The notes: generated from the sequence alone by a model not told the origin. A DNA stretch of 64,000 nucleotides from an uncultured Alphaproteobacteria bacterium (GCA_944390455.1 CALXPU010000007.1:356-64355); one strand, 5' to 3'. Positions 20,517-63,629 are shown, counted from the first letter of the stretch. Made by a program: numbers and translations.

Positions 20517-20688
20517 GGTGTTTGTTGTTGCCTTTTGATGGATGAGTATAGCTTTTTGTGACTTGCGTATTGTTGCTTTGAAATTTTTGTTTTATTGACC
20601 TTTTGAGGTCTTTTTTTGTGCTTGTTTTATGTGGTTTTTTGTGGTAAAATCTCTCTAATAGATGCCTAAATGTTAGGGAGATTTGAAA

Positions 20689-26488: not shown

Positions 26489-28245
26489 GCTTCTTCTCCA
26501 TAAGAAAGATAGCCATTATTTTGGAGCTGATAAAGTTTATAGAATGTACCGGATTTGTTTTTGAGTAGTTCATCAATGGGACCTTCTTCAATTATCTTGC
26601 CATTTTCTAAGACAATTATTCTATCCATGCTTCTTAATGTAGAAAGTCTATGAGCGATGGCAATCACGGTTTTATCTTTGATGATATTTTGTAATGCCTT
26701 TTCTATCATTATTTCCGCTTCACTGTCTAAGGCCGATGTTGCTTCATCCAAAATTAAAATCGGAGCATTTTGTAAAATAGCGCGGGCAATAGCAATGCGT
26801 TGTCTTTCTCCACCGGAAAGCATTGTCCCTCTTTCACCGACGACGCTATTGTATCCGTGTGGTAAATTCATAATGGTTTTATCAATTTGTGCTAATTGAG
26901 CGGCTTGGCGGATTTGCTCTTCGCTCGCTTGTGAGTTGGTTATACGCAAATTTTCCAAGATACTACGATTAAATAAGGCGGTATCTTGTGAGATAACGGC
27001 AATGTTTTTGTGGTGGGAGCGGAAAGTTAAGTCTTTGATATTTGTTTTGTTTAGCAATATTTCTCCGCTGTCTACATCATAAGCGCGAAGTAATAAGTTA
27101 ATCAAGGTGGATTTTCCTGAGCCGGAATGTCCGACTACTCCAATCTTTTCTCCGGCTTTGATATGTAGATTTAGGTTTTCAAATATCGGTTTGCCTTTGA
27201 TGTATGCAAAGTTTACGTTTTTGAATATTATTTCAGCTTTTGTTGGGCGTATGTTGATGGCGTTTTCTTTTTCTTTGATGTCAATGGGTTGGTTTAGGGT
27301 TGAGAAATTAGCACGAATTCCTCCCAGCTGATCAGATATAAATTGGCAGTAGTTGTTTATGCCCATGGTGGCTAAAACTAAGTTGACCAAGGTGGTGTAA
27401 ACGTAAAACAGATTATCCAGAGCGATATTGTCTTTTTGTGCAAAATATAAGATTAAAAAGATTCCGGAGGTTAAGAATACGGTATCTATTGCATGAAAGG
27501 TAAAACGCGAAACAATTTGATAACGTCCTTGTTCGGCTATGCGTAAAAGGGCTTGTTTTAAGCTTTTGTAAAAATAAAGTTGTTCGCTGAAAAATGATCC
27601 GCTGTATTTGACTAAATTGGCATTGGCAATGCTGTCTACTAAAATGCCTTTGGCTATGTTTTCATAATTTACACGATTTCGGCCTAAATCAAAAAAGTGA
27701 CGATTTACTTTATATACGGCGAAAAAATATGGAATGTTTATTGCAAATAATAGGGCGCTTAGTGATGGACTGAATGTTGCTATAATGGAATAAGATACGA
27801 TTAAAATTCCCATTGGACGGATGAGTAAAAAACAGGTATCCGAGAATAATTGTGTTAAACTCTGGCATAATCCTGTTAGTGCCGATGATATACGACCACT
27901 CATTTCATCATCAAAGTAACGAACGGAATGAGCATGAATTTTGGTGAAAATGTCTGTTACTAAATGACTTAAAAATGTTTGGGAAAAGGCGTCTTTTATA
28001 TATGTGGCGTAGTAGCCGTTTACGAGGGCGCGGATAAGGTAATATCCGACTAATATCAATAAAATTGTGAAACATTGATTGAGCGCTTCGGTTGAGTTTT
28101 TTATTTCAAAGCAACCAACAAGGCGGCTGATAAGCCATGTTTCTAATGGTAAAATGATGCAGGTCAAAATGAATGTAATGCAAAAAAGAATAAACAGTTT
28201 TTTACATTTTTTAAGATTTTTTAATATAAGCGTTCTAATATCCAT
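26485..28245 (-). CDS. ABC transporter ATP-binding/permease protein, MsbA-like exporter (tandem paralog 3)
   Basis: TMD plus NBD (GHSGSGKST, LSGGERQRIAIARA, ILILDEATSALD). ATGA overlap with paralog 2. Confidence 0.9.
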   Translation of the reverse strand: MDIRTLILKNLKKCKKLFILFCITFILTCIILPLETWLISRLVGCFEIKNSTEALNQCFTILLILVGYYLIRALVNGYYATYIKDAFSQTFLSHLVTDIFTKIHAHSVRYFDDEMSGRISSALTGLCQSLTQLFSDTCFLLIRPMGILIVSYSIIATFSPSLSALLFAINIPYFFAVYKVNRHFFDLGRNRVNYENIAKGILVDSIANANLVKYSGSFFSEQLYFYKSLKQALLRIAEQGRYQIVSRFTFHAIDTVFLTSGIFLILYFAQKDNIALDNLFYVYTTLVNLVLATMGINNYCQFISDQLGGIRANFSTLNQPIDIKEKENAINIRPTKAEIIFKNVNFAYIKGKPIFENLNLHIKAGEKIGVVGHSGSGKSTLINLLLRAYDVDSGEILLNKTNIKDLTFRSHHKNIAVISQDTALFNRSILENLRITNSQASEEQIRQAAQLAQIDKTIMNLPHGYNSVVGERGTMLSGGERQRIAIARAILQNAPILILDEATSALDSEAEIMIEKALQNIIKDKTVIAIAHRLSTLRSMDRIIVLENGKIIEEGPIDELLKNKSGTFYKLYQLQNNGYLSYGEEA

Positions 28246-29730: not shown

Positions 29731-31392
<1,662 letters not shown>

Positions 31393-31510
31393 TCTTTTTG
31401 TTGCTTATTTGACAGCCGGATTTTTTCCGGCTGTTTTTGTTTGTATAAACTTAATTTTAATTATTGTCTGTTATCCTAGAACACAACAGGTGTTTTTTAG
31501 GATATTTGAA

Positions 31511-34500
31511 ATGGGACTACTTAAACGTATTTTTGGCGTTAATATTTTATTTTTGTTTCTTTTTTGTGCCGTTAATGAGGCTAAAGCATTGTCTTTTGCT
31601 GGTTTTGCATATCAAAATGCAAGGCAGGCAAATATTATTGCGATAAAAAATTATCTTAAAAAAGGATATAAAATAGATTCCATTTCTCCGAATGGATATA
31701 CAGCTTTGTGCTATGCTGCTGCATATAATGATTATCCGGCATATAGTCGTTTACGTAATTTAGGGGCTGATGAAAATCATGAGTGTATGCAAAAGGTTAA
31801 TCCGGCTTATGTGCAAGATTTGGCGCAAAGATATGACGCAGTGGCTTCTCATCCTAACTATGCTTCTAATTTAGCGGATTCAGATACAACTAAAAAATAT
31901 TTAATTGCAGGAACTGCTTTGGCCGGAACAGCTGCCGCGGTTGCTTTGTTGGCAGATAGTGGTAGTGGTGGTTCTTCCGGAAATACAAATCGTTGTCCTA
32001 TCGGTCAAGAATGGGATGGCGAACAATGTATTCCGATTATTTGTCCGGACGGAACTCATTTAGAGGGAAATAATTGTGTTTCATGTCCTACCGGTCAGAA
32101 ATGGGATGGTTCTAAATGTATTCCGATTATTTGTCCTGATAATACGCATTTGGTTGGGAATGATTGTGTTGCCGACGATATTAATATTGATAACGATAAT
32201 GATAAGGACGTGTATGGAATTTATTCGGAAGAAGAAGATGTATATAATTTACGTTCAGATTCTGAATATCCTGATAAAGAGGCGAATATTAATATAGATA
32301 ATAAGGGTAATGGTAACGTTTATGGTATTTATGGCTTTGGTAATATTAAGAATTCCGGTGTTACAGATGCTGAGGCTGATGGAGAAGCTAATGTTGGTGT
32401 AGGAAATATTACTATTAATAATCAAGGTACTGGTAATGTTTTTGGAATTTACTCTCATGTTGAAGATATTTCTATTTTGAAAGAAGCATATATTGCCATG
32501 GCAACAAAAGGTGGTACAGCGTATGGCAACTTGGAGATAAATAATCAAGGCGGAGGGACCGCAACCGGTGTTTATGGCGATGTGCGCGCTTATAATGCCA
32601 GAGGTAATTTTGGTGGAAAAGCATACGGAAATATTACTATTCGCAATGACGGTGATATTTATGGTTTGAGCGGATATACTAATGCGACTAATGTAATTAC
32701 ATTTAATGGTGGTGGTGAAGCTAAAGGTGTCATTAATTTATATAGCAAAGGTGATGGAGACATTTATGGAATGGCCGTTAGTCCTGATGGAATTCCAGGA
32801 GTAGGGCAGCCTGAAGGTGGAGAGGGGCAGTTAGCAAATTGGTTTGCATATAACTCAGTGGTTTACAGTGATAATAGCTATGATTGGACGGGAAAGACAT
32901 CTACATCTGCTGAGATTAATATTCATAATATAGGTGATGGTAATGTGTATGGAATGTATGGAGGACAAACTCTTCAAAATGCTATTTACCAAGGAGTTGT
33001 GGATGGAGAAGGAAATGTTCAAGGTCTTGCAGATGGCTTGATTAGCATTGTTAATCATGGGAATGGTGATGTTTATGGTATGTATACGCTTGGTGGAAAA
33101 GATGGTACTCCGTCCAATATAGGTAATGTTACTAATGATGGCGCTCATTCGGTTATTAATATTGTTAATAGCGGAGATGGGGTTTCAACAGGTTTGCGTG
33201 GTGGCCAAGGTGGTTATATTGAAAATTCAGGTGAAATTAATATTAATAATTTAGGAAACGGTACTGCTGTTGGTATTTATGGTGGGGCAAATTCAAATAT
33301 TGTTAATAGCGGAACTATTAATATTTATCGTAAAGCCTATGTAGATGATGAAATGAAGCAAACTTATACACCTGAAAGTGCAACAGGCGGTACGGCTTAT
33401 GGTATTTATGCGGAAACAGGTTCTCATGTTATTAATGCTGGAACTATTACTGTTACGGGAGCGGATAAAGGAGCCGGTATTTATTTAGAAGCAGGGGCAA
33501 CATTTGAAAATTCCGGAGATGTTAAGTTTAATGGTTCTTCAGATTCCGCTATTCAAGAAGATGGAGAAGCTATTGATATTTATGGGGATGGGACAGATAG
33601 AGCTTCTGTTGACTTGAATGATATTGGTGGAGAAATTATTTTAGGACAAGGCGGACGCTTTTTTGCGGATAGCCTAAAAGGCGATATGAGTGTTTCCGAA
33701 AAAAATGTATTAGGTGGTTTTGATAATCAATATGTCTTGACGGGAGCTTTGCAAGCGGATGATGTTGATGAGTTGAATTTAAATTCTAAATCGGCAATGT
33801 TTGAAGCTACTTCTCAGAAAAATGAAAATGGTGGATATGATGTCGTTATGACGCGTCAGAACTTTAAAGATATTATTGATGATGATAATATTTCTGGTTA
33901 TCTTGAAAATAATTATGTTGGTGAAAACGGAAGTAAGATTTTTGATAGTTTGAAAACCGCAGGCGATAAAGGTACTCTTAATCAGAAAGCGGCAAATCTT
34001 TTAGGAACGGATATGTTACCAAATTTCCGTCGTGAAGATGCTTTGCTTTATCGTAATTTGAGCCGACAATTTAATGATAATTTATTTAATCAGCCTAATC
34101 AGAATTATATTGGCGGATATAAATATGTTGATATTTCAACAGATGCTGATGGTACACTTATGGGAACCGATGGTCAGGCTCATGTTGCTTATGGCATGAT
34201 GAAAAATAAAGGCGATAACGGAGTTACCTATGGTTTAGGGGCTAGTATTGCTAAGCTTAACAGCGATTATGACAATGGTTCTAAACGTGATGCCAATATT
34301 TTTGGGGTATGGGCTCCTGTTGGATATGATTTTAAAAATGGTGCACAATGGTATTCTAAATTGTATCTAGGTTATGTTGATGGCTCTTATGATCGTATAA
34401 CAGATTTACAGAAATATTCTGCAGATATGAATGAATATCAATATGGATTGAGTAATGAAGTTCGCTATGATTTGAGTTTAGGTGGTGGTTTTACATTTAG

Positions 34501-34906
34501 TCCATTAGCTGAATTAAATTTGTTTGGCGTTTATAGCGATGGTTATGATGAGGGGAATGATGAAGGAGCAATTCATACTGATAGCCAAAATGATTTATCT
34601 TTAGAAGGTGGACTTGGCGCTTATTTGGCTAAAAAGGTTGATTTTTCTGATGATAGTCATTTGACGGTTCAAATTGGTGGTGTTTATTATGTAGAATTTC
34701 TTGATCCGGATGATGGTTTTGATGCTTCTGTATCCGCTCTTGATGGCAAATATAAATTATCACACAAGTCAGATGATGGACGTGCTGTTTTATCTGCTCG
34801 CGTAAATTATAACTATAAAGATATTACAATTTATGGAAATATTGAAAAAGAAACATCAAATGATAAAAGTTTACTTATTGATGCTGGGGTGCAATATAAA
34901 TTTTAA
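31511..34906 (+). CDS. autotransporter (type Va) adhesin-like protein with N-terminal signal peptide, ankyrin-like segment, Cys-rich tandem modules and Gly-rich beta-helix repeats
   Basis: Signal peptide MGLLKRIFGVNILFLFLFCAVNEAKA. NGYTALCYAAAYNDYPAYSRLRNLGADEN matches the ANK consensus. 2x 29-aa CP.GQ.WDG..CIPIICPD.THL.GN.CV repeats. More than 10 I.I.N.G.G.VYG(I/M)YG repeats. C-terminal beta-barrel ending ...GVQYKF (aromatic terminus). The track ORF start 31337 overlaps groEL and is an over-extension. Confidence 0.7.
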   Translation: MGLLKRIFGVNILFLFLFCAVNEAKALSFAGFAYQNARQANIIAIKNYLKKGYKIDSISPNGYTALCYAAAYNDYPAYSRLRNLGADENHECMQKVNPAYVQDLAQRYDAVASHPNYASNLADSDTTKKYLIAGTALAGTAAAVALLADSGSGGSSGNTNRCPIGQEWDGEQCIPIICPDGTHLEGNNCVSCPTGQKWDGSKCIPIICPDNTHLVGNDCVADDINIDNDNDKDVYGIYSEEEDVYNLRSDSEYPDKEANINIDNKGNGNVYGIYGFGNIKNSGVTDAEADGEANVGVGNITINNQGTGNVFGIYSHVEDISILKEAYIAMATKGGTAYGNLEINNQGGGTATGVYGDVRAYNARGNFGGKAYGNITIRNDGDIYGLSGYTNATNVITFNGGGEAKGVINLYSKGDGDIYGMAVSPDGIPGVGQPEGGEGQLANWFAYNSVVYSDNSYDWTGKTSTSAEINIHNIGDGNVYGMYGGQTLQNAIYQGVVDGEGNVQGLADGLISIVNHGNGDVYGMYTLGGKDGTPSNIGNVTNDGAHSVINIVNSGDGVSTGLRGGQGGYIENSGEININNLGNGTAVGIYGGANSNIVNSGTINIYRKAYVDDEMKQTYTPESATGGTAYGIYAETGSHVINAGTITVTGADKGAGIYLEAGATFENSGDVKFNGSSDSAIQEDGEAIDIYGDGTDRASVDLNDIGGEIILGQGGRFFADSLKGDMSVSEKNVLGGFDNQYVLTGALQADDVDELNLNSKSAMFEATSQKNENGGYDVVMTRQNFKDIIDDDNISGYLENNYVGENGSKIFDSLKTAGDKGTLNQKAANLLGTDMLPNFRREDALLYRNLSRQFNDNLFNQPNQNYIGGYKYVDISTDADGTLMGTDGQAHVAYGMMKNKGDNGVTYGLGASIAKLNSDYDNGSKRDANIFGVWAPVGYDFKNGAQWYSKLYLGYVDGSYDRITDLQKYSADMNEYQYGLSNEVRYDLSLGGGFTFSPLAELNLFGVYSDGYDEGNDEGAIHTDSQNDLSLEGGLGAYLAKKVDFSDDSHLTVQIGGVYYVEFLDPDDGFDASVSALDGKYKLSHKSDDGRAVLSARVNYNYKDITIYGNIEKETSNDKSLLIDAGVQYKF

Positions 34907-34919
34907 GTGAGAGGGAAAT

Positions 34920-35654
34920 ATGGAAAAATTTATTTTATATATTAGACAGGGAAAAGGAATTGGGGCGCTCTTTTTATTAGCAGCAGCTGTATTGATTACC
35001 ATGATGTTGGCCATTTCTCTTAGAAATTCGTATTCTGAAGCGAAACCGGAAATTATGTTGGTTGCTAATGAATTTTTGCCGTTGACGGTTAAGGATGGTC
35101 AAGTTGTGCAACCTGTTGATGCATATAAAAAAGTTGATATTGATTTAGGACAACAAGGTAAGCCTGAAGATTTGTTTTCGGTTGTTTTGGATACCAGAGC
35201 TGATGCTAAAGCTCCGGCTATGAATGAATTGGGGATTTTTATTACCAAAGATGTTGTTTATTTGTCATCTCCAAATCAAATTAAACGTATTCAATTTCAA
35301 GATGGGGAATTCACTAAAGAAAATTTTCCGGAAATAGTTGATAATGCTGTTGGTGCTGTTTCTGCTATTGTGGTTTTGGTTTTGTTAATCTTTTTCTTTA
35401 TTACATATTTAATTAAAACCGGTTTTGTTGTTTTGTTTATGTCTTTGATTTTAAGGATATTGAAAAAGAAAGAGTTAATTCGCACATCATCTTTGATGCG
35501 TTTGAGTGCCGTTACTGTTGCCGGAGTGGAGTTTTTAGTTTTTGTATTGGATTTAGTACTTGATTCTGCAACGTTAGGCATTGTGCGTTTTGGTATTGCT
35601 TTTGTTCTTGTTTTAGTTTTTGTTTTTAAATTTTTGCTAAATGAGAATAAATAA
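34920..35654 (+). CDS. hypothetical integral membrane protein
   Basis: 244 aa. TM helix near the N-terminus and a C-terminal cluster of 3-4 TM helices. 13 nt after the autotransporter stop. Confidence 0.5.
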   Translation: MEKFILYIRQGKGIGALFLLAAAVLITMMLAISLRNSYSEAKPEIMLVANEFLPLTVKDGQVVQPVDAYKKVDIDLGQQGKPEDLFSVVLDTRADAKAPAMNELGIFITKDVVYLSSPNQIKRIQFQDGEFTKENFPEIVDNAVGAVSAIVVLVLLIFFFITYLIKTGFVVLFMSLILRILKKKELIRTSSLMRLSAVTVAGVEFLVFVLDLVLDSATLGIVRFGIAFVLVLVFVFKFLLNENK

Positions 35655-35802
35655 ATTACGGATGTTATCAAAAAATCCCCTTGTTAGGGGATTTTTTGTT
35701 TGTGTGCATATGATGTGGTAAAACTATCTTTTTACTTGATTATATAGTCAGATGTAGTTTACTTTTATATCATGTTAATTGATATATAAGTTAGGAGCTC
35801 TT

Positions 35803-37320
35803 ATGTCTTTTCGTTTTTGTTGTTTGGTTTTAGGGTGTATGGTTTTAAATTTCCATGCGGCTTGGGCTACGTATACTTATAAAGAAGATGATACTCGTAT
35901 GGTTAATGGCATATTGTATGACATTAACGGTGATCCGGTGACAGGTAATTATGAGCTCTTTTATGAAAATAATATCAGAAAAAGTTTGATGCCGTATGTT
36001 GACGGAATGTTAAACGGTGTGGGCTCTGTTTATAATGAACAAGGAATAAAAGAAGCAGATATGCCGTTCATTAATGGAAAGTTAGAAGGTGTGGCACTGG
36101 TTTATTATGAAGACGGAAGCCTTAAGGAGAAAATCCCTTATAGAGGTGGTAAGATTAATGGTGTTATGAGAGCTTTCTACAAAAATGGTCAGGTTAAGGA
36201 TAGAATATCTTATGATGCAGATATTAAAAACGGAACGGCGAAATCATATTATGAAGATGGAAAATTAAAGGAACTCTATAATTATACCGATGGGCAGAAA
36301 GAAGGGGAAGCTACGGTTTATTTTTACGATGGGAGTATTGCTGAAAAACTTAACTATAGTGGAGATGCTATTGTCGGAGAGCGGACAATCTATTATAAAA
36401 GCGGACGCGTTAAATCTCGTATGAGTTATGAGTTTGGTAAAAAGAATGGCAATATGCAGAACTATTATGAAAGCGGTGGTTTAGCAGCGATTGTTCCTTA
36501 TAAGGATGATATTATTGATGGAGAAGGATCTTTTTATACTGAAGATGGTGTACTGAATTTAACGGTTAATTATAAAAATAATGTTCGCGATGGGGTGGCT
36601 CGTGCTTATTTCCCAAATGGTTCGGTTAAACTTGCAGTAGAATATCAAAATGATGTCAAAAATGGAGTTGAAACTGAATATTTTGAAGATGGTAAAGTAA
36701 AAATGGAAATGCCTTATGTTAATGGGGTTGTTAATGGTATTGGGCGTGAGTATTATGAAACTTCCGGTTTGAAAATGGAAATGACGTATGTTGATGCTGT
36801 GGCAAATGGCGTGGCAAAGTTTTATGATGAAAAAGGAAAGTTGTCTGTAGAGGCTTATTATAAAGATGGTAAGAAAGATGGTCTTCAGAAGAATTTTGAT
36901 GAAGATGGTAAGCTTGTTTCTGAAAGTAATTTTGTTAAAGATGTTTTGAATGGCGAATATAAAGAATTTTATGATTCAGGTAAGGTTAAGTCTACAGCTA
37001 ATTATACAGATGGAGTGTTGGAAGGTTTGACACTTGTTTATGATGAGGATGGAAATTTATCTTATGAAATTCCTTATGTTAAAAACAGAAAAGAAGGAAA
37101 AGTAAAACGTTATTATCCGACCGGAGAGCTTATGGGCGAAGTTTCTTATGAAAAAGGTAAGAAACATGGTATGTTGGATGCGTATAATCAAGATGGAACT
37201 TTAATGGCTAAGGTCTTGTTTAATAAAGATGAGGCTATTAAGGGGTATAGTCTTAATCATGGTAAAGATCCTGTGTTGATGTCTGAAGAAGAACTCAAAC
37301 TGATTAACGACGCGTATTAG
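35803..37320 (+). CDS. secreted MORN-variant repeat protein (YwqK-family repeats)
   Basis: Signal peptide MSFRFCCLVLGCMVLNFHAAWA, then about 17 tandem YwqK/MORN2-type repeats (…NG…YYE(D/N)GKLK…Y…GKK(N/D)G…). AGGAG SD 5 nt before ATG 35803. The track ORF starts at TTG 35779. Confidence 0.65.
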   Translation: MSFRFCCLVLGCMVLNFHAAWATYTYKEDDTRMVNGILYDINGDPVTGNYELFYENNIRKSLMPYVDGMLNGVGSVYNEQGIKEADMPFINGKLEGVALVYYEDGSLKEKIPYRGGKINGVMRAFYKNGQVKDRISYDADIKNGTAKSYYEDGKLKELYNYTDGQKEGEATVYFYDGSIAEKLNYSGDAIVGERTIYYKSGRVKSRMSYEFGKKNGNMQNYYESGGLAAIVPYKDDIIDGEGSFYTEDGVLNLTVNYKNNVRDGVARAYFPNGSVKLAVEYQNDVKNGVETEYFEDGKVKMEMPYVNGVVNGIGREYYETSGLKMEMTYVDAVANGVAKFYDEKGKLSVEAYYKDGKKDGLQKNFDEDGKLVSESNFVKDVLNGEYKEFYDSGKVKSTANYTDGVLEGLTLVYDEDGNLSYEIPYVKNRKEGKVKRYYPTGELMGEVSYEKGKKHGMLDAYNQDGTLMAKVLFNKDEAIKGYSLNHGKDPVLMSEEELKLINDAY

Positions 37321-37420: not shown

Positions 37421-38725
37421 TTAGAGCTTTCTTCCTAAACTCATGATTTCAAAACCGAGTTCTTTTGCTTTTTTGCAATCAAATGTATTGCGGTAGTCTG
37501 CAATTTGAGGTTTTGTTAATAACATTTTGATTTTCTCTAAATCCAACTCTTTGAATTCTGCCCAATCGGTCAAAACAGCAAGAGCATCTGCGCCGCCAAT
37601 GGCTTCATACGCAGAATTGCAATAAGTAATCATGTTGCCTAAAATTGCTTTTGTGTTTGGCATTGCTTGTGGATCATACAAGCGAATATTTACGTCATGC
37701 GCTAACATGATTTCAATGATTTGCAAAGCAGGAGATTCACGGCAATCGTCTGTTCCCCCTTTGAAAGCACTTCCCAAAACGGCGATCGTTGGATTTTTCT
37801 TGTCTGAAACCATATCAAGAATACGTTTTGCCATATTGATTTTGCGGCGTTCATTACTTTTAATTGTTGTTTCTATCAAAGATAAATCAACACCATTGAA
37901 TTTTCCCATATATGCCATTGCGTTTGTGTCTTTTGGGAAGCAAAAGCCACCATATCCCGGTCCTGGTACTAAGAATTTTGCACCAATACGAGAATCTAAT
38001 CCCATACCTTTAGCTACTTCATAAATATCGGCACCAGATGTCTCGCAGAAGTCAGCCATTTCGTTGATGTATTGAATTTTCATGGCTAAAAAGGCATTTG
38101 ATGCATATTTTATTGTTTCTGAAGATTGGCGGGAAACGTATAAAATTGTGCATTTATCTTTGAACGGTTCATATAAAGTGCGGATGACATCTTTGGCACG
38201 TTCAGAGTTGGCACCAACGATAATTCTGTCTGGATTGAAGAAGTCATGCACCGCGAAGCCTTCACGTAAAAATTCCGGTAAAGATATAACATCAAAATCA
38301 GCTGTAGGGTTAGTTCTGCGGATGATGTCTTCAACAGCATTACCTGTATTAACCGGTACAGTTGATTTTATGGCGATAACAGTATAACCGCTCAGATGAT
38401 GTGCTAGTTCTTCCGCGGCAGCTTTGATATATTTCATATCAGCTTCTTTGGTTATCGGGTTTGGTGGAGTACCAACGGCTAAAATAACTAAGTCTGCATT
38501 AGGAATACTGTCTGCAAATGAGGTTGAAAATGTTACTTTGCCATTTGCGGTATTTTTTTGAAATAAATCTTCTAATCCTTCTTCAAAAATGGTAACTTTG
38601 CCTGATTTGAGTTGATTAATTTTTTTCTCATCAATATCCAAGCATATCACATCATTACCAAGTTCTGCCAGCCCTACACCAGTGGGAAGTCCAACATAAC
38701 CTGTTCCGATAACCGTAATTTTCAT
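37421..38725 (-). CDS. ugd: UDP-glucose 6-dehydrogenase / nucleotide-sugar dehydrogenase
   Basis: MKITVIGTGYVGLPTGVGLAELGNDV (Rossmann). Catalytic …GFCFPKD… region. 434 aa. Confidence 0.88.
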   Translation of the reverse strand: MKITVIGTGYVGLPTGVGLAELGNDVICLDIDEKKINQLKSGKVTIFEEGLEDLFQKNTANGKVTFSTSFADSIPNADLVILAVGTPPNPITKEADMKYIKAAAEELAHHLSGYTVIAIKSTVPVNTGNAVEDIIRRTNPTADFDVISLPEFLREGFAVHDFFNPDRIIVGANSERAKDVIRTLYEPFKDKCTILYVSRQSSETIKYASNAFLAMKIQYINEMADFCETSGADIYEVAKGMGLDSRIGAKFLVPGPGYGGFCFPKDTNAMAYMGKFNGVDLSLIETTIKSNERRKINMAKRILDMVSDKKNPTIAVLGSAFKGGTDDCRESPALQIIEIMLAHDVNIRLYDPQAMPNTKAILGNMITYCNSAYEAIGGADALAVLTDWAEFKELDLEKIKMLLTKPQIADYRNTFDCKKAKELGFEIMSLGRKL

Positions 38726-47679: not shown

Positions 47680-49296
47680 TTATTCAAAAAATAGCGGTGT
47701 TGATTTTTTTGTTTGTTCGTTTATCCAATTTTGACCACGAATTTTACCATCGTAGCTGAGTGTTAGAATAATTAACTCCGGTGATATATAAATGCTGTTT
47801 GGTGATGGCCATGGTTGAGCTTGTTTGTTGAGATATTGGATAAGAGTTGGCGTGATGGCGATTTGTTTTTCATCAATATAACTCCAATAAACGTCAAAAT
47901 CGGCTGAAACAAATTCTTTCAGATAGTAAAATTGATATGCTTTTGAGGGTAGGTGCCACGGAACATAAGGAGCAGTTAAGGTGTATCCGTCTTTTTTGCT
48001 TAAGTTGGTGTGGTGGTAAAAACGGCTACGGAAATCAGATATTCCACTTTGTACAAACGTATATTTTTCATTTGGGTTGAAATGCGGTTTTTGTTCTAGT
48101 TGTTTTATAATTCTTTCGCTTAAGCGCATTTCTGATTGGTATCCCAGTTGCCAAACTTTGGCGGCAAAGGCTTGTGTGTTAATATTATTGAGGATTAAGA
48201 AAAATCCTGCAAGATAACATAGGTTGCGCATGAAGTTGTTGGGAATAGAACAAAGGATGCTTATAGAAAAAATGTAGATATACATTAAACCGAAAAATTC
48301 AATGCGCGGTTCATACAAAACATGAGCTGTGTTTGGTGTTAAAAACACGGTTAATAAGCTAGAGAAAAGAAGTCCAAGAATGCAGAAAATAAATACGCAT
48401 ATGCTAGATAGTTTTTTGGGAAGATTGTGCCAGAGGGCGATTATGCTTAATAAAAATAAGCATAATCCACAGTATTTATAAAACTTTTCTATAAAACTGG
48501 TTGTAATGAAAAATTGTTGAACCATTGCTTGTAAACAAAAAGCAATTTTGGCGGGAATTTGGGTAATGTCTAATTCTGCCGTATTATATGTAGCGTATTG
48601 AAGATGGTAATGTTTTAGAAGTTGCTGAATAATGATGAATAAAATTCCGCTTAATGCTACGGCGCATATATGCGTGGTATATTTGCGCAAAATACTGGTA
48701 ACTGTTAATTTTTTTAAACATAAGTCTTTAAGGATTAAGCTAAATAAGAGCAAACCGATGAGGTTAACAACCGGAGGATAGCCTCCTAGTGATAGTGTGA
48801 ATAGTATAATGGCGCTTATAAAGCGGATGATATGCTTTTTTTCTAATAAGTAGTATGCATATATAACAGTGCAACTCCAAGATAAGCAACTTAAGGTTAT
48901 AAATGCAAAATATAACCAAGATAAAGTATATGGGGCGGTGGTGGTTAAGGCGCCGATGAGTAAGTATAATTTGGTTTTAGGTGGAATGTTCCATAATTTG
49001 AGGAGCAAAATTGTTCCGATACAAAAAAAGGCTAATGCAGTTAAAAGAGTAAGAACAGGAAGAATTTGTCCGCCGAAAAGTACATTTTGCAGGATAAATT
49101 GTGAGAAACGTCCTTCAAATAGACCGCTTTTGAGAGGGGTGCCTGTTTTTATCCATTCCCAATCGTGATTTCCCCACATAAAGTTAAACAGAAATGGCAG
49201 ATAGGCTATGAGGCTGATTAAATAGAGTTTTAATGCGCTATTTAGGTAAAATGATGTTTCTGTTTTTGCGGTTGATGTGGGGGAAGTGTTTGCCAT
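47680..49296 (-). CDS. polytopic membrane protein, putative GT-C glycosyltransferase (GtrC-like), paralog C
   Basis: About 11 TM. N-terminal FNFMWGNHDWEWIK…SGLFEGRFSQF. C-terminal periplasmic domain with QPWPSPNSIYI. Paralogous to 50331..51890 and 51892..53520. Adjacent to a GtrB-like GT2. Confidence 0.5.
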   Translation of the reverse strand: MANTSPTSTAKTETSFYLNSALKLYLISLIAYLPFLFNFMWGNHDWEWIKTGTPLKSGLFEGRFSQFILQNVLFGGQILPVLTLLTALAFFCIGTILLLKLWNIPPKTKLYLLIGALTTTAPYTLSWLYFAFITLSCLSWSCTVIYAYYLLEKKHIIRFISAIILFTLSLGGYPPVVNLIGLLLFSLILKDLCLKKLTVTSILRKYTTHICAVALSGILFIIIQQLLKHYHLQYATYNTAELDITQIPAKIAFCLQAMVQQFFITTSFIEKFYKYCGLCLFLLSIIALWHNLPKKLSSICVFIFCILGLLFSSLLTVFLTPNTAHVLYEPRIEFFGLMYIYIFSISILCSIPNNFMRNLCYLAGFFLILNNINTQAFAAKVWQLGYQSEMRLSERIIKQLEQKPHFNPNEKYTFVQSGISDFRSRFYHHTNLSKKDGYTLTAPYVPWHLPSKAYQFYYLKEFVSADFDVYWSYIDEKQIAITPTLIQYLNKQAQPWPSPNSIYISPELIILTLSYDGKIRGQNWINEQTKKSTPLFFE

Positions 49297-49298
49297 TT

Positions 49299-50252
49299 TT
49301 AATCCAATTTTTTATCTATGATATAGGTTGGACGATTTTTGACTTCAACGAAGATGCTGGCGATGTATTCGCCGATTATTCCCATGAATAAGATGGTAAT
49401 ACCGCTGAAAAAGGTGATGGTAGACATGAGTGATGCCCAGCCGACAATGGTGGATCCAGTGCAATATCCATAGACGGTCCATATCATCAAGAGGAAACTT
49501 AAGGCGGATATAAGCATGCCGCAAAGTGTGATTAAATGAAGCGGCATGGCTGAAAAACTAGATATTCCTTTTAAGGCAAATAAAATCATTTTTCTTAAAG
49601 GATATTTAGTTTGTCCGGCTTCTCTTTTTTGGCGTTCATAGTATACACAGTCGGATTTGAAACCAACTAACGGAACAATGGCGCGTAAAAAGAGATTTTT
49701 TTCTTTGAATTCTGACATCGCTTCTACGGCACGGCGACTTAATAAACGAAAGTCGGCATGGTTGGCGACCAATTCTACTCCAAGTAATTTCATTAGTTTA
49801 TAAAATAAAATGGCTGAGCTACGTTTAAAAACACTATCTGTATCTCGTTTGTTTCTGACACCATATACAATGTCACATCCATTTTGATATTTTTTTATCA
49901 TGGGTTTGATGGCATTAATATCATCTTGCAGGTCGGCATCTATGGTTATGTATATTTCGGCATCTGTATTGTATAATCCGGCAAGTAAAGCTTCTTGATG
50001 GCCAAAGTTGCGTGATAAACAAATCCCTTTGATATAAGATGATTTTTTGTGGGCTTTTTCAATTAGTTGCCAGGTGCTGTCTTTTGATCCGTCATTTACG
50101 AAAACAATTTGACTGTCTTTGGTGATTAATTCATCTTTTTGTAAATCTTCATATAATTTTGATAGCCTTTTTATACTTTGCGGAAGAACTTCTTCTTCAT
50201 TATAGCAGGGTATTATTAAGGCAAGTTTTGCGGCTTTTTTCATAGGTGTCAC
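49299..50252 (-). CDS. GT2 polyprenyl-phosphate glycosyltransferase (GtrB/ArnC-like)
   Basis: IIPCYNEEEVL…FVNDGSKDST…DADLQDD, with two C-terminal TM helices. 317 aa. Confidence 0.85.
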   Translation of the reverse strand: MTPMKKAAKLALIIPCYNEEEVLPQSIKRLSKLYEDLQKDELITKDSQIVFVNDGSKDSTWQLIEKAHKKSSYIKGICLSRNFGHQEALLAGLYNTDAEIYITIDADLQDDINAIKPMIKKYQNGCDIVYGVRNKRDTDSVFKRSSAILFYKLMKLLGVELVANHADFRLLSRRAVEAMSEFKEKNLFLRAIVPLVGFKSDCVYYERQKREAGQTKYPLRKMILFALKGISSFSAMPLHLITLCGMLISALSFLLMIWTVYGYCTGSTIVGWASLMSTITFFSGITILFMGIIGEYIASIFVEVKNRPTYIIDKKLD

Positions 50253-50330
50253 CCATTAATTTTGTTATAACAATTTAGCTCTTTTGTAGCACAAAACCGT
50301 AAGTTTTTTATTAACAATCTGATTTATTAT

Positions 50331-51890
50331 TTAAGGGCGAAGTGTGCGTAAAATGTTTTTGAAGTCATCTAATCCTATTTGATTATAGACGATGATGATA
50401 ATGTCTTGGTTAACATATACCGAGTTAGGGTGTGGCCATGGTTGGGCTTTATGCATAAAGAAATCATAAACTTCCGGCGTAATGTCTTCGGGGAGCAAGG
50501 GTAATTTATGGTCAATGTAGGTTGTGAGGGTATAAAATTCTAATAAATTGCTGCCTTGCCACATAGCTAAATATGGAATAGTTAAGAGAAAAACATCGTT
50601 AAACTCAAAAGAACCATTGTAGTAGTTGGGGCGTAAAGAGATGTCTCCTACTTGGTAAAAGCGATATTGATGATTTGCATCAAATTGAGGATGATTTTCT
50701 ATTCTTTCAACGACGTTATCTAAAATTTGAAATTCGGCGTCATGTCCCTGTTTCCAAATTTTTAGTGCTTGATAGTCGTTTAAAATATTTAAGCATAGCA
50801 GAAATGCGATAATTATTACTCCGAAACTTTGGTAGATTTTTGGGGTGAGTGTTAATAAAATTCCTGCCACCAAAGCATATAAAAATCCAAAGCCGTAAAA
50901 GTCTATGCGAGATACATATTCAGTGTGCGGTACAACGAGAAAAGTTGTTAATGCGGTTGCCCAAATTGTTCCTATCCAAAAACATAAGATTAGAATTTTT
51001 TTTGTGGCTTTTGATGGGATAAACAGTGTGCCGATAATGGCTATAAACGACATAATCGCTAAACAAAGTTTATATCCAATTTCCATAAAAGGTACAGTGA
51101 TGAAAAATTGTTTAAAAGAAATGCTTATGGTTTGTATAAATTTGTGAGGAAGGTTGTTTAGGCTTTCTGTTTCCAGATTATAGACGTTGTTTGGATTGAG
51201 GATGAAAAGGCTGATTTTGAATAAAATGGCAGCGATTATTATGTTTAAAATCGTAAATTTGTGGATGTGAAATAGTTGCTTTAAGCTTTTTTGTTCAAAA
51301 ACATAGCAGATGATGATTTTTCCACCTAAACATACGAAAAACATGTTGATTATCGGTGGATAGCCCCCTAATGTTAGGTAAAAACAAAGGATGGCTAAGC
51401 AACATAAGCCGAGTTTGTGATGACTGGCATTGATGCGTTCTGATATAAATAATCCCAAAGCGGCCAGTAATGTCCAGAGTAAGCAGCTGATGGTAATAAA
51501 AGTGAAATACATCCAAGATAAAGTATAAGGTTGGGTGGCGACAAAAGATATAAACAAAACGTATCCGATTAGAGATTTTTTTATGTTCCAATATTTGGCC
51601 AGAATCCATAATCCTATGGTTAGAAATGCGAATCCGAGCAGATTGTTTAATATGGGGAGAATCTGACCGGAAGTTAAAAGACGATAGGGGATAAATTGTG
51701 TAAATCTGCCTTCAAAAAGTCCAGATGATAAGAGTAATTCTTCTTTGATGAATTTTACATCATGATTGCCCCACATGAAATTTAAGGTGTGGTATAAAAA
51801 AGCGAAATTGATGATGCCAAAACTAATTAGCCAAGCTTTTAGGTCGGTTTTATCGGGGAGAAGATTTAGCTTTTTTAGAAATTCTTTCAT
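50331..51890 (-). CDS. polytopic membrane protein, putative GT-C glycosyltransferase (GtrC-like), paralog B
   Basis: LNFMWGNHDVKFIK…SGLFEGRFTQF N-terminal block. C-terminal AQPWPHPNSVYV. 519 aa. Confidence 0.5.
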   Translation of the reverse strand: MKEFLKKLNLLPDKTDLKAWLISFGIINFAFLYHTLNFMWGNHDVKFIKEELLLSSGLFEGRFTQFIPYRLLTSGQILPILNNLLGFAFLTIGLWILAKYWNIKKSLIGYVLFISFVATQPYTLSWMYFTFITISCLLWTLLAALGLFISERINASHHKLGLCCLAILCFYLTLGGYPPIINMFFVCLGGKIIICYVFEQKSLKQLFHIHKFTILNIIIAAILFKISLFILNPNNVYNLETESLNNLPHKFIQTISISFKQFFITVPFMEIGYKLCLAIMSFIAIIGTLFIPSKATKKILILCFWIGTIWATALTTFLVVPHTEYVSRIDFYGFGFLYALVAGILLTLTPKIYQSFGVIIIAFLLCLNILNDYQALKIWKQGHDAEFQILDNVVERIENHPQFDANHQYRFYQVGDISLRPNYYNGSFEFNDVFLLTIPYLAMWQGSNLLEFYTLTTYIDHKLPLLPEDITPEVYDFFMHKAQPWPHPNSVYVNQDIIIIVYNQIGLDDFKNILRTLRP

Positions 51891-51891
51891 G

Positions 51892-53520
51892 TTATCTCCG
51901 TAGTTGTGGGCTTAGATGAAGTAGTTTAAATTGATTGCGTAAAAGTTCTTTTCCTTCCGGCGTTAAGGCGATGATGGCGTATTTGTCATCAACATATACT
52001 GAATAGGGATGAGGCCATGGTGTCATTTGAGTTGATAAAAATGTTATCATCTCAGGGGTAATCTCTTCCGGTTTTATGGATGTGCCTTCTTGTACAAAGT
52101 TTTGCGGTGCGTAGAAATTGTAATATTCAAAAGCAATCCAATGTCTGGAATAAGGGGTGTTTAGCGTGTAGTATCCGTATTTTTCATTGGGCTTTTTTTG
52201 ATAATATTGGGGGCGAAGCGGAATTTCTCCTGCTTGAATAATCGTGTATAAATTATTGGTTAGATACTGTGGGTGGTTTTCTAGTCTGTTTATGATGCGT
52301 TCCAATAATTTATTTTCAGCATTAAAACCAAGTAAGTGAATTTTGCTGAAATTTAGGTTGGTGTTTATATTGGTCAGTAAAAGGAAAACGGCGCAAATAA
52401 AACTTATATTTTTTAGTATTTGCTTTTTCTGCTCTTGTATGAAATATAGGCAAAATAAAATTAAGATTGGATAGCTATAAAAGTCGGTGCGCACCATTGA
52501 TGTTGAGGGATCAAGTTTGGCAAAAGCGTTGTCTGTGTTATTTGATATTAGCCATGCGGAAAATTTTAAACTAATAAGCAAGCCTAAAATTAATATCAAA
52601 ATGAGCAAGATGTCGCCCATGTTTTTGCGGGTTTTGAATGTTTGAGTAAAGACACTAATAAGAAAAATTATGAAAATTATTGAGAGTACCTCTTTTAAAG
52701 AGATACTTAAAAAAGGTTGTGTTTCTGTAAATCCTATAATACCGGCTTGGATGATGGTTGGTAATTTTTGTATTAATTCAATAGGAGAGGCAGCCTGACT
52801 ATTATACATATTCATCATAAGATGATTTTGTTGTAAGTAGTCAAAAGTTATTTTTAGTAATCCAAGCGCTAAGATGAGATTTATTGCATGGGCTAGAATA
52901 TGTTTACTCAACTGGGTGTAACTTAATTGTTTGACTATTCTGAGTTGGATTAGGCGACAGCAAACCGCGGTTACGTACATGTTAATACAACCAGGATATC
53001 CTCCAAGAGCAATATATAATAAGGCAAATCCGCATATTTCCCACGGAATAAAGCTTTTTTCGGTGGCTTTTTGGGTGGCAATTAATGATAGTGTGATGAT
53101 GAATGTCCAAGATAGCAAGCTTAAGGTTATGAAATGAAAATAGAGGATTTCTATGATATAGGGCAAGCTTGCTGCAGCGCTGGTGTACAATACAGTTGAA
53201 AGTTTTGTGGGCTGAAATTTGAAATAATATTTGCCTAAGCAATACAAAGATAGGCTATAAAAAAAGAAGCCGATGATGATATTTAATATGGGGAGAATTT
53301 TTCCCATTAATAAAAGTTTTAAGAGCAAATATTGCGAAAAACGTCCTTCTATTAATCCAGATGTTAGATGATTGTCTTGAATGAGGGGGAGCCAATCGTG
53401 ATTGCCCCATATAAAATTGAAAAGTAGAGGAGAAAAACTTATGCATAGGATGATTAAAGGAACTATCCAAAGATAGTTACCTGTTTTTATTTTGTTTATG
53501 TCTTGTTTTAGTTCAAGCAT
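51892..53520 (-). CDS. polytopic membrane protein, putative GT-C glycosyltransferase (GtrC-like), paralog A
   Basis: FNFIWGNHDWLPLIQ…SGLIEGRFSQY N-terminal block. C-terminal MTPWPHPYSVYV. 542 aa. 1-nt gap to paralog B. Confidence 0.5.
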   Translation of the reverse strand: MLELKQDINKIKTGNYLWIVPLIILCISFSPLLFNFIWGNHDWLPLIQDNHLTSGLIEGRFSQYLLLKLLLMGKILPILNIIIGFFFYSLSLYCLGKYYFKFQPTKLSTVLYTSAAASLPYIIEILYFHFITLSLLSWTFIITLSLIATQKATEKSFIPWEICGFALLYIALGGYPGCINMYVTAVCCRLIQLRIVKQLSYTQLSKHILAHAINLILALGLLKITFDYLQQNHLMMNMYNSQAASPIELIQKLPTIIQAGIIGFTETQPFLSISLKEVLSIIFIIFLISVFTQTFKTRKNMGDILLILILILGLLISLKFSAWLISNNTDNAFAKLDPSTSMVRTDFYSYPILILFCLYFIQEQKKQILKNISFICAVFLLLTNINTNLNFSKIHLLGFNAENKLLERIINRLENHPQYLTNNLYTIIQAGEIPLRPQYYQKKPNEKYGYYTLNTPYSRHWIAFEYYNFYAPQNFVQEGTSIKPEEITPEMITFLSTQMTPWPHPYSVYVDDKYAIIALTPEGKELLRNQFKLLHLSPQLRR

Positions 53521-53549
53521 CGGTTATCTACGCATTTGTGGTTTCGTTG

Positions 53550-53578
53550 TTGACAGCTTAATCTCCAAATGTATAATT
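53550..53578 (+). promoter_or_regulatory. consensus sigma70 promoter TTGACA-N17-TATAAT
   Basis: Perfect -35 and -10 hexamers with 17-nt spacer. 25 nt upstream of the 53604 ORF. Confidence 0.55.
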
Positions 53579-53603
53579 TATAGTAAATTTTGAAAGGCTT
53601 TTT

Positions 53604-61405: not shown

Positions 61406-62380
61406 ATGAATAAGGTTCTTGCCAAAACTGTTGAAAAACCCGATATCTCAATTATTGTTTCTGTTTATAATGAAGAAGATAGTTTGGATATTTTCTTTGA
61501 GGCTATTCGGCAAGTTATGGAAAAAAAGGCGGATTGTCGTTATGAAATAGTTTGTGTTGATGATGGTTCAACTGACGGAACTTTTCAATTGCTCCAAAAA
61601 TATGCTCAAGATGATTTTAGAATCAAAGTTTTGAAATTCTCACGTAATTTTGGTAAAGAATATGGGCTTATGGCAGGGCTTAAATATTGTTCCGGTCGGG
61701 CCGCTATTCCGATAGATGTTGATTTGCAGGATCCACCTGAGCTCATTCTTCAGTTTATTGAAAAATGGGAAGAAGGTTATGATATGGTTTATGGAATCCG
61801 TAACGATCGTGCCAGTGATACTTGGCTTAAGCGATGGACGGCGAAACTCTTTTATAAAACATATAATTTGATGACACGTTCGCCTATTCCTTATAATGCC
61901 GGAGATTATCGTCTGATTGATCGTAAAATTATTGATACTATTTTAGAACTTCCAGAACGTAATATTTTTATGAAAGGTATTTTTGGGTGGACCGGATTTA
62001 AATCTTGCGGAATTAAATATATTCGCCAAAAAAGGGCTGCCGGTGTTAGCAAATGGAATTATTGGAAGTTATGGAATTTTGCTCTTGATGGTATTACCGC
62101 TTCAACAACGTTACCTTTGCGTATTTGGACTTATTTGGGCTCAATGCTTTCATTCTTGGGGTTGTTGTATGCCTTGTATATTATCATTCGAACAATTATG
62201 TATGGCGCTGATGTTCCAGGGTATGCCTCTCTGTTAGTTTTTATTTTGTTAGTGGGCGGGGTGCAGATGATTATTTTAGGTATTCTTGGGGAGTATATCG
62301 GTAGAATTTTCATCGAAGTTAAACATCGGCCGCTTTATATTGTGGAGAAAAAGGTAAATTTTGGTAATGACAAAGAGTAA
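61406..62380 (+). CDS. GT2 polyprenyl-phosphate glycosyltransferase (GtrB/ArnC-like), second copy
   Basis: ISIIVSVYNEEDSL…VCVDDGSTDGT…DVDLQDPPE, with two C-terminal TM helices. Confidence 0.85.
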   Translation: MNKVLAKTVEKPDISIIVSVYNEEDSLDIFFEAIRQVMEKKADCRYEIVCVDDGSTDGTFQLLQKYAQDDFRIKVLKFSRNFGKEYGLMAGLKYCSGRAAIPIDVDLQDPPELILQFIEKWEEGYDMVYGIRNDRASDTWLKRWTAKLFYKTYNLMTRSPIPYNAGDYRLIDRKIIDTILELPERNIFMKGIFGWTGFKSCGIKYIRQKRAAGVSKWNYWKLWNFALDGITASTTLPLRIWTYLGSMLSFLGLLYALYIIIRTIMYGADVPGYASLLVFILLVGGVQMIILGILGEYIGRIFIEVKHRPLYIVEKKVNFGNDKE

Positions 62381-63629
62381 ATTTGCTTCTTATTTTTCAC
62401 GTAAAATGTTAATAACCATCGCCTTTGGTTTATCTAGTGGTTTGCCTTTGGCTTTGGTGTTTGGGACGCTTTCTCTTTGGTTTAAAGACTATCATATTGC
62501 GTATCGTACGATTGGGGCTTTTTCTTTATTAAGGTTACCGTATTCATTTAAATGGTTATGGGCGCCGGTGGTTGAAACTATTAAAATTCCATTCCTTTCT
62601 CGTTTGGGGAAACGCAGAAGTTGGGCTATTTTTTCACAGCTAGGTCTGTTTTTATCTATTTTATGGTTGTCTTGTCTTTCTCCGGATAATTGTATTTTGT
62701 GGATGGCTGTGGCGGCTTTTTGCGTCAGTTTGTTTTCAGCAACACAAGATATTGTTTTGGATGCGTTCCGTGTTGAATTGTTTCAGCATAATCAAGAAAA
62801 AGAAATTGATGGTGCAACAATGTATGTTTTGGGGTATCGAATCGGTAACGTAATTTCCGGAGCCGGTGCTATTGGTTTGGCTGCGATTTTAACTTGGAAT
62901 GAAGTCTATCTTATTAATGCTTTGATTTTGCTTATAGGTATGGGGGCTGTGTTATTGTCACGAGAACCCAAAGCGGAAGTGGCAGAAGTCAAACAAGAGA
63001 AAAATGTTCTTAAATATGCGGTAATAGAGCCGTTTCGTTTGTTTATGGAAAGGCAGTATTGGTTGGCTGCATTGATTGTGGTGTTTTGTTATCGTTTAAG
63101 TGATGCGTATTTTGCTCCGATGGCTTATCCTTTTTATGATGATTTGGGGTTTACGAAAACAGAAATTGCCTATATTTCTAAATTGTATGGTATGGGGGCA
63201 ACGATTATAGGTGGCTTGTTAGGTGGTTACTTTTTAACGAAAGTTGGGCTGTTGAAAGGTTTACTGATTTTTGCCTTTGTGCAAGGAGTGACGACGGCTC
63301 TTTATATTCCTCTTTATTATCTTGGGCATAATGTGTGGTTTTTGATGTTTACGATTTCTTTGGAAAATCTTTCTTCCGGTATGGCAACAACCGCAATTAT
63401 CGCGTTTATGTCTGTCTTGTGTCATAAAGGTCATACGGCAACACAATATGCTTTGTTATCATCACTTCCAGGGTTCGCTCGGGATATTTTTGCTTCAACG
63501 TCCGGGTGGGTTTTGGATCAGACATCTTGGCCGGAATTTTTTATGATTAGTGCGCTTTTGACACTTCCTGGAGCCGTATTTTGTTGCTTTTTATATAAGA
63601 AAAAGCCTGCATATTTAATTGATGCTTGA
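62361..63629 (+). CDS. ampG: AmpG family muropeptide MFS permease
   Basis: …SGLPLALVFGTLSLWFKD… and overall 12-TM MFS layout match AmpG. Overlaps the upstream GT2 by 20 nt (the true start may be 62367). Confidence 0.7.
   Translation: MVMTKSKFASYFSRKMLITIAFGLSSGLPLALVFGTLSLWFKDYHIAYRTIGAFSLLRLPYSFKWLWAPVVETIKIPFLSRLGKRRSWAIFSQLGLFLSILWLSCLSPDNCILWMAVAAFCVSLFSATQDIVLDAFRVELFQHNQEKEIDGATMYVLGYRIGNVISGAGAIGLAAILTWNEVYLINALILLIGMGAVLLSREPKAEVAEVKQEKNVLKYAVIEPFRLFMERQYWLAALIVVFCYRLSDAYFAPMAYPFYDDLGFTKTEIAYISKLYGMGATIIGGLLGGYFLTKVGLLKGLLIFAFVQGVTTALYIPLYYLGHNVWFLMFTISLENLSSGMATTAIIAFMSVLCHKGHTATQYALLSSLPGFARDIFASTSGWVLDQTSWPEFFMISALLTLPGAVFCCFLYKKKPAYLIDA

Follow-up and report, generated by a model that had tools for sequence, protein, structure and literature searches.

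A conserved operon encoding three GtrII-like membrane glycosyltransferases and a GtrB-like synthase in uncultured gut Alphaproteobacteria

Introduction

The phage- and prophage-borne gtrABC cassettes of Shigella and Salmonella comprise a GtrA flippase, a GtrB synthase of undecaprenyl phosphate glucose (Und-P-Glc), and a single serotype-specific glycosyltransferase (GT) of the GT-C class, Gtr(type), encoded in the order A-B-C. Here we describe an operon of related content in a 64,000-nucleotide stretch of DNA from an uncultured Alphaproteobacteria bacterium (GCA_944390455.1 CALXPU010000007.1:356-64355; the whole stretch is referred to below as the window). Four co-directional, tightly packed genes on the minus strand (47680-53520), identified by open reading frame (ORF) calling and arranged in the order C1-C2-GT2a-C3, encode three paralogous GtrII-like membrane proteins (C1, C2, and C3) and a GtrB-like glycosyltransferase (GT2a). 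The most likely role of the operon is that of a housekeeping system for decorating several sites of a cell-envelope glycan.

The locus shares with gtrABC the Pfam family of its GT-Cs, a near-full-length alignment to GtrII that includes the C-terminal W-P-x-P-x-S, and the same presumed chemistry, in which a lipid-linked monosaccharide donor is used in the periplasm. It differs in that no GtrA was found, in that three GT-Cs rather than one are present in the operon (with a fourth encoded elsewhere in many relatives), and in its gene order, C-C-B-C. Moreover, whereas gtrABC cassettes are carried by phages, this is a core-genome locus that is fixed across its clade and is neither mobile nor strain-variable. 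Its distinctive features are the fixed three-fold GT-C paralogy, a GtrB paralogue that is divergent and seemingly dedicated, and the lack of a GtrA match in the window and in related loci L001-L055.

Several systems outside the gtrABC group follow a similar plan. In Streptococcus mutans, SccN and SccP, which synthesise Glc-P-Und, and the GT-C transferases SccM and SccQ carry out side-chain glucosylation of SCC, with SccM and SccQ acting at different positions of one polymer (PMC11754754). That system resembles the one described here in combining two GtrB-type synthases with several GT-Cs, in being constitutive and chromosomal, and in having a flippase that is still unidentified (PMC11754754), and it is the best functional analogy to the operon. 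However, the SCC genes are Gram-positive and lie inside a polysaccharide locus, whereas the operon stands apart from glycan-synthesis genes and encodes three paralogous GT-Cs from a single family; the likeness to SccM and SccQ drawn here is one of function. In Gram-negatives, three-component systems modify O-antigens with pentofuranose and with Gal/Glc (Kelly et al. 2024, PMC11127046), and elaborate systems with multiple GT-Cs have been noted in Xanthomonas and Bacillus (PMC11127046). Among three-component systems the flippase family varies, being either SMR-like GtrA or MATE (PMC11127046). The logic is shared, with a flippase acting between the polyprenyl-phosphate sugar synthase and the GT-C, but in those systems the synthase is of the phosphoribosyl type, the GT-Cs belong to GT136, and the genes lie in O-antigen loci, whereas the operon encodes a GtrB-type GT of family 2 (GT2) and PF14264-type GT-Cs. 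Mycobacterial embCAB and eukaryotic ALG5 with ALG6/8/10 likewise pair several paralogous GT-Cs with one polyprenyl-phosphate donor, ALG5 being the eukaryotic counterpart of GtrB. The Emb and ALG enzymes nevertheless belong to other GT-C families, use decaprenyl phosphate arabinose or dolichyl phosphate glucose (Dol-P-Glc) as donors, and have no detectable sequence relationship to C1-C3; the Emb proteins are also much larger, and the others in this comparison lack a C-terminal domain.

The system fits the established three-component glycosylation paradigm without challenging it, and is a new example, in an uncultured lineage, of a well-known kind of system. It matters because it gives experiments a concrete entry point to the surface glycans of widespread uncultured gut and rumen Alphaproteobacteria, and because it indicates that enzymes of the GtrII type, usually regarded as serotype converters carried by phages, can also be housekeeping genes fixed in several copies.

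Results

The triplicated GT-C genes are fixed in a clade of gut and rumen Alphaproteobacteria

A motif scan over one genome per GTDB species returned 52 loci, all of them in metagenome-assembled genomes (MAGs) of uncultured gut or rumen Alphaproteobacteria except for one 1.4-kb contig binned elsewhere. Those nearest to the window are MAGs of uncultured Alphaproteobacteria that were recovered from the guts of humans, mice, and ruminants, and a second, word-indexed homologue search with a profile recovered the same clade only. We found the order DUF192 <- / C1 -> C2 -> GT2a -> C3 -> recJ -> DUF502 in every locus that was long enough to show it, in more than 30 species. The housekeeping flanks were also kept in these species-level MAGs, with DUF192/BOF on one side and recJ/DUF502/metK on the other. 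ORF and tRNA scans found no tRNA, integrase, or phage gene at the operon locus, and the G+C content of the operon (about 0.35-0.36) is within the range of the window.

Mean identity is 45-60% within orthogroups and 25-32% between paralogues, and in a neighbor-joining (NJ) tree C1, C3, and the fourth paralogue, C4 (see below), each form a clade. When the window genes were compared with those of the nearest species, the ratio of nonsynonymous to synonymous substitution rates (dN/dS) was 0.09-0.16 for C1, 0.11-0.13 for C3, and 0.09-0.16 for C1-C3 overall, as against about 0.05 for GT2a and 0.03-0.06 for recJ. The dN values of C1 and C3 are 2-4 times that of recJ, and C1 is the fastest-evolving paralogue. 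Because the same order and flanks recur in more than 30 species, the paralogues form separate orthologue sets, and dN/dS is about 0.1-0.15, we interpret the triplication as ancient, fixed, vertically inherited, part of the core genome, and under purifying selection. It predates the radiation of this gut and rumen alphaproteobacterial clade. The same three observations speak against a suggestion made in a preliminary description of this DNA, namely that the serotype-specific component had been triplicated to diversify glycan decoration. The broader resemblance to gtrABC-type surface glycan modification proposed there held for the protein families, but not for the variable, serotype-like character that it implied.

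C1, C2, and C3 are predicted GT-C enzymes distantly related to GtrII

The three polytopic proteins are 30-34% identical to one another in a three-way alignment. They have in common an N-terminal block, NF[MI]WGNHD...SGL[FI]EGRF[ST]Q, and a C-terminal motif, PWP[HS]PxS[IV]Y, and the conserved blocks are visible in the DNA as three-copy in-register direct repeats (D1-D4). At E values up to 1, the sole Pfam family matched by C1-C3 was PF14264 (Glucos_trans_II), the family built on GtrII of Shigella phage SfII. The matches scored 31.4, 48.2, and 42.7 bits for C1, C2, and C3, respectively, against a Pfam gathering score of 30; no YfhO match was found for any of the three at the same E value limit. 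When a 50-sequence profile of the family was aligned to SfII GtrII (reference sequence from KC736978) with hhalign, the match was weak but collinear (probability 74%, E 2.9e-5, 424 columns). It covered residues 27-477 of the 486 in GtrII and placed 'SWPNPDSI' of that protein on 'PWPHPNSVY'. The relationship of C1-C3 to GtrII is remote and detectable by profiles only.

Structural comparison pointed to the same class of enzyme. The AlphaFold2 model of C2 is of high confidence (predicted local distance difference test, pLDDT, 93.9; predicted TM-score, pTM, 0.92) and has a GT-C architecture: a first transmembrane (TM) helix at residues 14-30, a first periplasmic loop with short helices at 32-73, a polytopic core of some 11-12 further helices, and a C-terminal alpha/beta domain at 400-519. 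In a Foldseek search of the PDB with this model, all matches with a probability of at least 0.9 were GT-C enzymes (AglB, EmbA, STT3, PglB, and DPY19), with E values of about 0.01-0.08 and TM-scores of at most 0.41. By these values, the PF14264-type family found here lacks a close solved structure. The match to ArnT was poor (probability 0.41-0.47, TM-score about 0.23-0.26), a search of PDB chains with the C2 sequence gave no match, and Foldseek against viral predicted structures gave weak matches only, to uncharacterised phage membrane proteins.

These results bear out much of the preliminary description. The four-gene operon has the extent and the protein sizes that it reported, the terminal motifs are as it quoted them, and its assignment of the three proteins to GtrC-like GT-Cs is upheld by the Pfam matches and by the profile alignment to GtrII. 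No unrelated transporter family emerged from the profile search.

Conservation is concentrated in the first periplasmic loop

Across the four orthogroups C1-C4, 33 positions are conserved. Ten of these fall inside the 44-residue first periplasmic loop (G41, H43, D44, G57, E60, G61, R62, F63, Q65, and G75 in C2 numbering), and few lie in the TM core or the C-terminal domain. This pattern fits a common donor site combined with acceptor sites that have diverged.

The first periplasmic loop of GT-C enzymes holds the catalytic acid. In our alignments, D44 and E60 are each at least 90% conserved in every one of the four orthogroups, and D44 is invariant in alignment A2, the hhalign query. Glu40, in the first periplasmic loop of SfII GtrII, is described as critical (PMC8509367); hhalign puts this residue two positions from E60, in an alignment that is weak and does not fix the exact equivalence. 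The C-terminal tail of SfII GtrII is periplasmic (PMC3259042). Judged by their conserved residues, the C1, C2, C3, and C4 orthogroups all look catalytically competent, and the invariant W-G-N-H-D / E-G-R-F loop provides candidate catalytic residues for a GT-C family without a solved structure.

The window encodes two GtrB-like synthases

Both GT2a and GT2b, a second GtrB-like protein encoded outside the operon, match PF00535 (98.2 and 120 bits, respectively). GT2a aligns end to end with the Synechocystis GtrB structure 5EKP (residues 8-313, E 2e-57), with ArnC as the next match (E 2e-38). It is predicted to have two C-terminal TM segments (230-248 and 275-293), and the block that contains its DxD motif, 'IDADLQD', aligns with 'IDVDLQD' of SfII GtrB. 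GT2a is 39% and GT2b 51% identical to SfII GtrB, and identity between GT2a and GT2b is 38%. For both proteins the best NCBIfam match is PgfS, far below its cutoff. We infer that GT2a is a GtrB-type polyprenyl-phosphate glycosyltransferase, and that GT2b is the closer GtrB orthologue, with GT2a as the more divergent copy. The GtrB-like identity that had been proposed for the in-operon GT2 is thereby confirmed as a full-length homology.

GT2b is possibly a second donor synthase. Its 3' end overlaps by 20 nt the start of a bona fide AmpG-family gene, whose product scores 434 bits with TIGR00901 (cutoff 350), and it is divergent from murJ; this synteny is kept in relatives. The gene had already been noticed beside ampG, and both identifications proved sound. 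GT2b and ampG together span 61406-63629 on the plus strand, and a comparable arrangement occurs in L061 (1-2049).

A fourth paralogue and the wider family

Seventeen loci from the same MAGs (L026, L028-L030, L034-L036, L038, L039, L041, L045, and L049-L054; for example L035 7854-9440) encode a further PF14264 protein of about 530 aa (56.6 bits), which we refer to as C4. It is encoded at a locus separate from the operon and is not found in this window. C4 shares 28-35% identity with C1-C3, of which C2 is the nearest to it. Its gene is usually divergent from phage-like genes for the small and large terminase, portal/adaptor, major head, and tail proteins, with lolA on the other side, and C4 may be the cargo of a prophage or may be encoded at a hot spot for integration. 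No relative turned up when IMG/VR was scanned by motif and by tblastn with the C4 alignment. When we compared co-divergence with host genes through pairwise-identity correlations, rank correlations were weak for all genes, and C4 could not be distinguished.

In an exhaustive profile search with clustering at 50% identity, the family comprised 825 clusters with an E value of 1e-3 or less and 245 with one of 1e-30 or less. Many of these wider-family proteins run to about 740 aa, with an additional extracytoplasmic segment of ~200 aa at the N-terminus that has no Pfam match, and keep WGNH[DE]W. We examined the surroundings of three distant relatives. In two of them the GT-C gene lies inside a run of polysaccharide glycosyltransferase genes (GT2-RgpF-GT2, or a GT2 plus a 1355-aa GT2+GT8 protein; L060 5928-13152 and L063 1583-10031) and is followed directly by a GtrB-type gene, while the third stands alone. 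In L063 a phage-type integrase gene is found about 430 bp downstream of the GtrB gene. Because distant relatives sit in polysaccharide glycosyltransferase clusters, a polysaccharide acceptor would be favoured for the subfamily. The GtrB protein coupled to the distant GT-C is, at both loci, 60% identical to GT2b and 39% identical to GT2a, which suggests that GT2b represents the ancestral partner and that GT2a, the copy inside the operon, is a divergent paralogue and may supply another donor.

Search for a flippase

The preliminary description had reported that no GtrA-like flippase was evident, and our searches agree. We found no credible small ORF with at least three predicted TM segments in the window, and tblastn with SfII GtrA gave no match in the window or in related loci L001-L055. 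AmpG and MurJ, encoded beside GT2b, are both bona fide members of their NCBIfam families, and to name either as the missing flippase is pure speculation.

A second triplicated set of membrane proteins is encoded in the window by three tandem, overlapping ABC half-transporter genes (22989-28245, minus strand), whose products are paralogues of 581, 585, and 586 aa. Their best NCBIfam matches are a glucan exporter model of the ChvA/NdvA-like type and MsbA, all below cutoff, and PglK is also listed. ABC exporters of the ChvA/MsbA class can flip lipid-linked glycans. Two further ABC exporter genes lie at 20683-22956 and 15639-17603, both on the plus strand.

Discussion

We favour, with a probability of roughly 0.55, the interpretation that the operon encodes a periplasmic 'three-component' (GtrB/GtrC-type) glycosylation system that is constitutive and fixed in the chromosome, with one lipid-linked donor and three acceptor sites or steps. 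By homology, GT2a would load undecaprenyl phosphate with the sugar of a nucleotide-sugar donor at the cytoplasmic face of the inner membrane. The lipid-linked sugar would then be flipped to the periplasm by a flippase encoded outside the locus, a step that is a gap in the scheme. Finally, C1, C2, and C3 would each put the sugar on a different position or acceptor of a glycan in the envelope, most probably polysaccharide or lipopolysaccharide (LPS), with the near-identical first periplasmic loop of the three proteins (W-G-N-H-D ... S-G-L-F-E-G-R-F) as the presumed donor-binding and catalytic site. Because all copies have been retained under purifying selection, the three activities would be non-redundant parts of normal envelope biogenesis, and we propose this role for them in place of a serotype switch.

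A number of observations count against this interpretation. The Pfam scores are modest, that of C1 being barely above the gathering score; the Foldseek matches to GT-C enzymes are weak; and tblastn with C2 against 50,697 phage records gave no match and no phage Gtr relative. The flippase gene was found neither as a small multi-TM ORF nor by GtrA tblastn in the window. Within the window, polysaccharide-synthesis genes do not adjoin the operon, which leaves the acceptor to conjecture, and GT-Cs from outside the clade are coupled to a GT2b-type and not a GT2a-type synthase, which makes the pairing of synthase and GT-C here uncertain. C2 is non-monophyletic in the NJ tree, which we attribute to the L052 protein: it falls in C2 by the identity cut-off, yet has the neighbours of C4, and the tree was computed with this protein still assigned to C2. 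The functions proposed for this subfamily are based on homology, in an organism that is uncultured. Lastly, glycosylation at different positions and glycosylation in successive steps are indistinguishable on present evidence.

The last of these points leads to a rival reading in which C1-C3 would act in order or as a hetero-oligomer to build a short oligosaccharide or polymer from the lipid-linked donor, on the model of eukaryotic ALG6/ALG8/ALG10 with ALG5 or of mycobacterial EmbA/EmbB/EmbC. We regard this as possible, though unlikely. The three genes are always retained together in the same order; C1 and C2, 1 nt apart in the window, overlap by 1 nt in the gene calls of L001 and L003, suggesting coupled expression; the shared donor loop would fit one common donor; and EmbA is among the best structural matches of C2. 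Against this, Gtr(type) and SccM/SccQ, the close analogues that have been characterised, each attach side-chain sugars singly (PMC3259042, PMC11754754), and the reading departs from the one we favour in its acceptor logic only. A more elaborate version, which we judge to be quite unlikely, envisages a network of two donors and four transferases. GT2a would feed an obligately ordered or complexed C1-C3 that builds a lineage-defining, gut-essential glycan; GT2b would feed C4, acting as a lysogenic-conversion or receptor-masking enzyme that draws on the host pool of lipid-linked sugar without a GtrA or GtrB of its own; and the flippase would be of a non-GtrA type. That the target process is protein O-glycosylation seems to us improbable, though less so than what follows. 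Streptococcal GtrB-type synthases do feed protein glycosylation (PMC12041528), PgfS is the best, if far sub-cutoff, NCBIfam match of both GT2 proteins, the operon does not adjoin polysaccharide genes, and the window holds genes for an autotransporter and further surface proteins. However, the GT-Cs that glycosylate streptococcal proteins belong to the YfhO family (PMC12041528), whereas C1-C3 match PF14264 only, and distant relatives of the subfamily are found in polysaccharide glycosyltransferase clusters.

We consider it very improbable that the operon is a gtrABC-like serotype-conversion module whose specificity component has been multiplied for strain-variable decoration. Homology to the GtrII and GtrB families, the raised dN of C1 and C3 relative to recJ, and the phage-like head and tail genes that adjoin C4 in many relatives are what such a module would have in its favour. 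Yet copy number, order, and flanks are invariant over more than 30 species, which already goes most of the way to refuting it; neither an integrase, a phage gene, a tRNA, nor GtrA was found at the locus; dN/dS is well below 1; the G+C content of the locus is unremarkable for the window; and the phage collections searched, the 50,697 records and IMG/VR, contained no relatives. We give next to no credence to the idea that C1-C3 are transporters or other polytopic proteins with a spurious family match. The modest Pfam scores and the presence of major facilitator superfamily (MFS) transporters among the weak Foldseek matches would be in line with it, but the MFS matches have a probability of at most 0.2 and a TM-score of about 0.1, as against a probability of 0.9-1.0 for GT-C enzymes. 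All three paralogues and the fourth orthogroup pass PF14264, the genes are linked to a GtrB-type gene both here and in two of the three distant relatives examined, and the first periplasmic loop contains invariant acidic and basic residues.

Coordinates and other features of the window

The coordinates of the operon genes, of GT2b, and of the divergent intergenic region are collected in Table 1. Within the operon, the intergenic gaps not already given are 78 nt (C2/GT2a) and 2 nt (GT2a/C3). Downstream of C3, recJ follows after 80 nt, and upstream of C1 a divergent DUF192 gene lies 83 nt away. The mechanical ORF of GT2a starts from a GTG at 50252, and an ATG three codons downstream, at 50243, gives a protein of 314 aa. 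The gene call of a 66-kb ENA metagenome scaffold that matches the window gives this length too, and most orthologues have 313-317 aa; the ATG at 50243 is probably the true start. In the region between C1 and the DUF192 gene, a promoter scan found a single strong sigma-70-like match (12/12), which is directed at the DUF192 gene on the plus strand. Promoter/terminator, Rfam, and tRNA scans yielded nothing informative for the operon locus.

Table 1. Positions of the operon genes and associated features in the window, with the identity of orthologues in related loci to the window protein.
Feature	Position	Strand	Description	Basis	Orthologue identity
C1	51892..53520	-	542 aa, GtrII-like GT-C membrane glycosyltransferase; first operon gene	ORF, PF14264	40-88%
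C2	50331..51890	-	519 aa, GtrII-like GT-C membrane glycosyltransferase; most conserved paralogue	PF14264, AlphaFold2, Foldseek, hhalign	54-93%
GT2a	49299..50252	-	317 aa ORF, GtrB-like polyprenyl-phosphate glycosyltransferase; GT-A domain and two C-terminal TM helices	PF00535	71-97%
C3	47680..49296	-	538 aa, GtrII-like GT-C membrane glycosyltransferase	ORF, PF14264	45-91%
GT2b	61406..62380	+	Second GtrB-like synthase	PF00535	
Divergent intergenic region, C1 to DUF192 gene	53521..53603	.	83 bp, presumed operon promoter region		

About 9 kb from the operon, there is a ugd gene for UDP-glucose 6-dehydrogenase (37421-38725, minus strand), which scores 440 bits as a nucleotide-sugar dehydrogenase (cutoff 190). 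Its presence shows that UDP-glucuronate is made by the organism; this could be the precursor of a lipid-linked uronic acid or of a donor of the 4-amino-4-deoxy-L-arabinose (Ara4N) type. This gene prompted us to consider a lipid A/core modification system of the ArnT/Rgt (GT83) kind, which we rejected because no GT83 or ArnT/PMT_2-type profile gave support.

The region 31337-37320 (plus strand) encodes a 1189-aa autotransporter with a BigA-like beta-sandwich, a 244-aa ORF, and then a 513-aa MORN-repeat protein. The autotransporter and the MORN-repeat protein would be possible targets if the operon served protein glycosylation.

The lowest G+C content in the window (0.296) is found at 10001-12000, together with a reversed GC skew. 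The genes there, on the minus strand, encode an MFS transporter of 400 aa and a small P-loop kinase-like protein of 188 aa and follow a run of ribosomal-protein-sized genes; this segment may be a small insertion.

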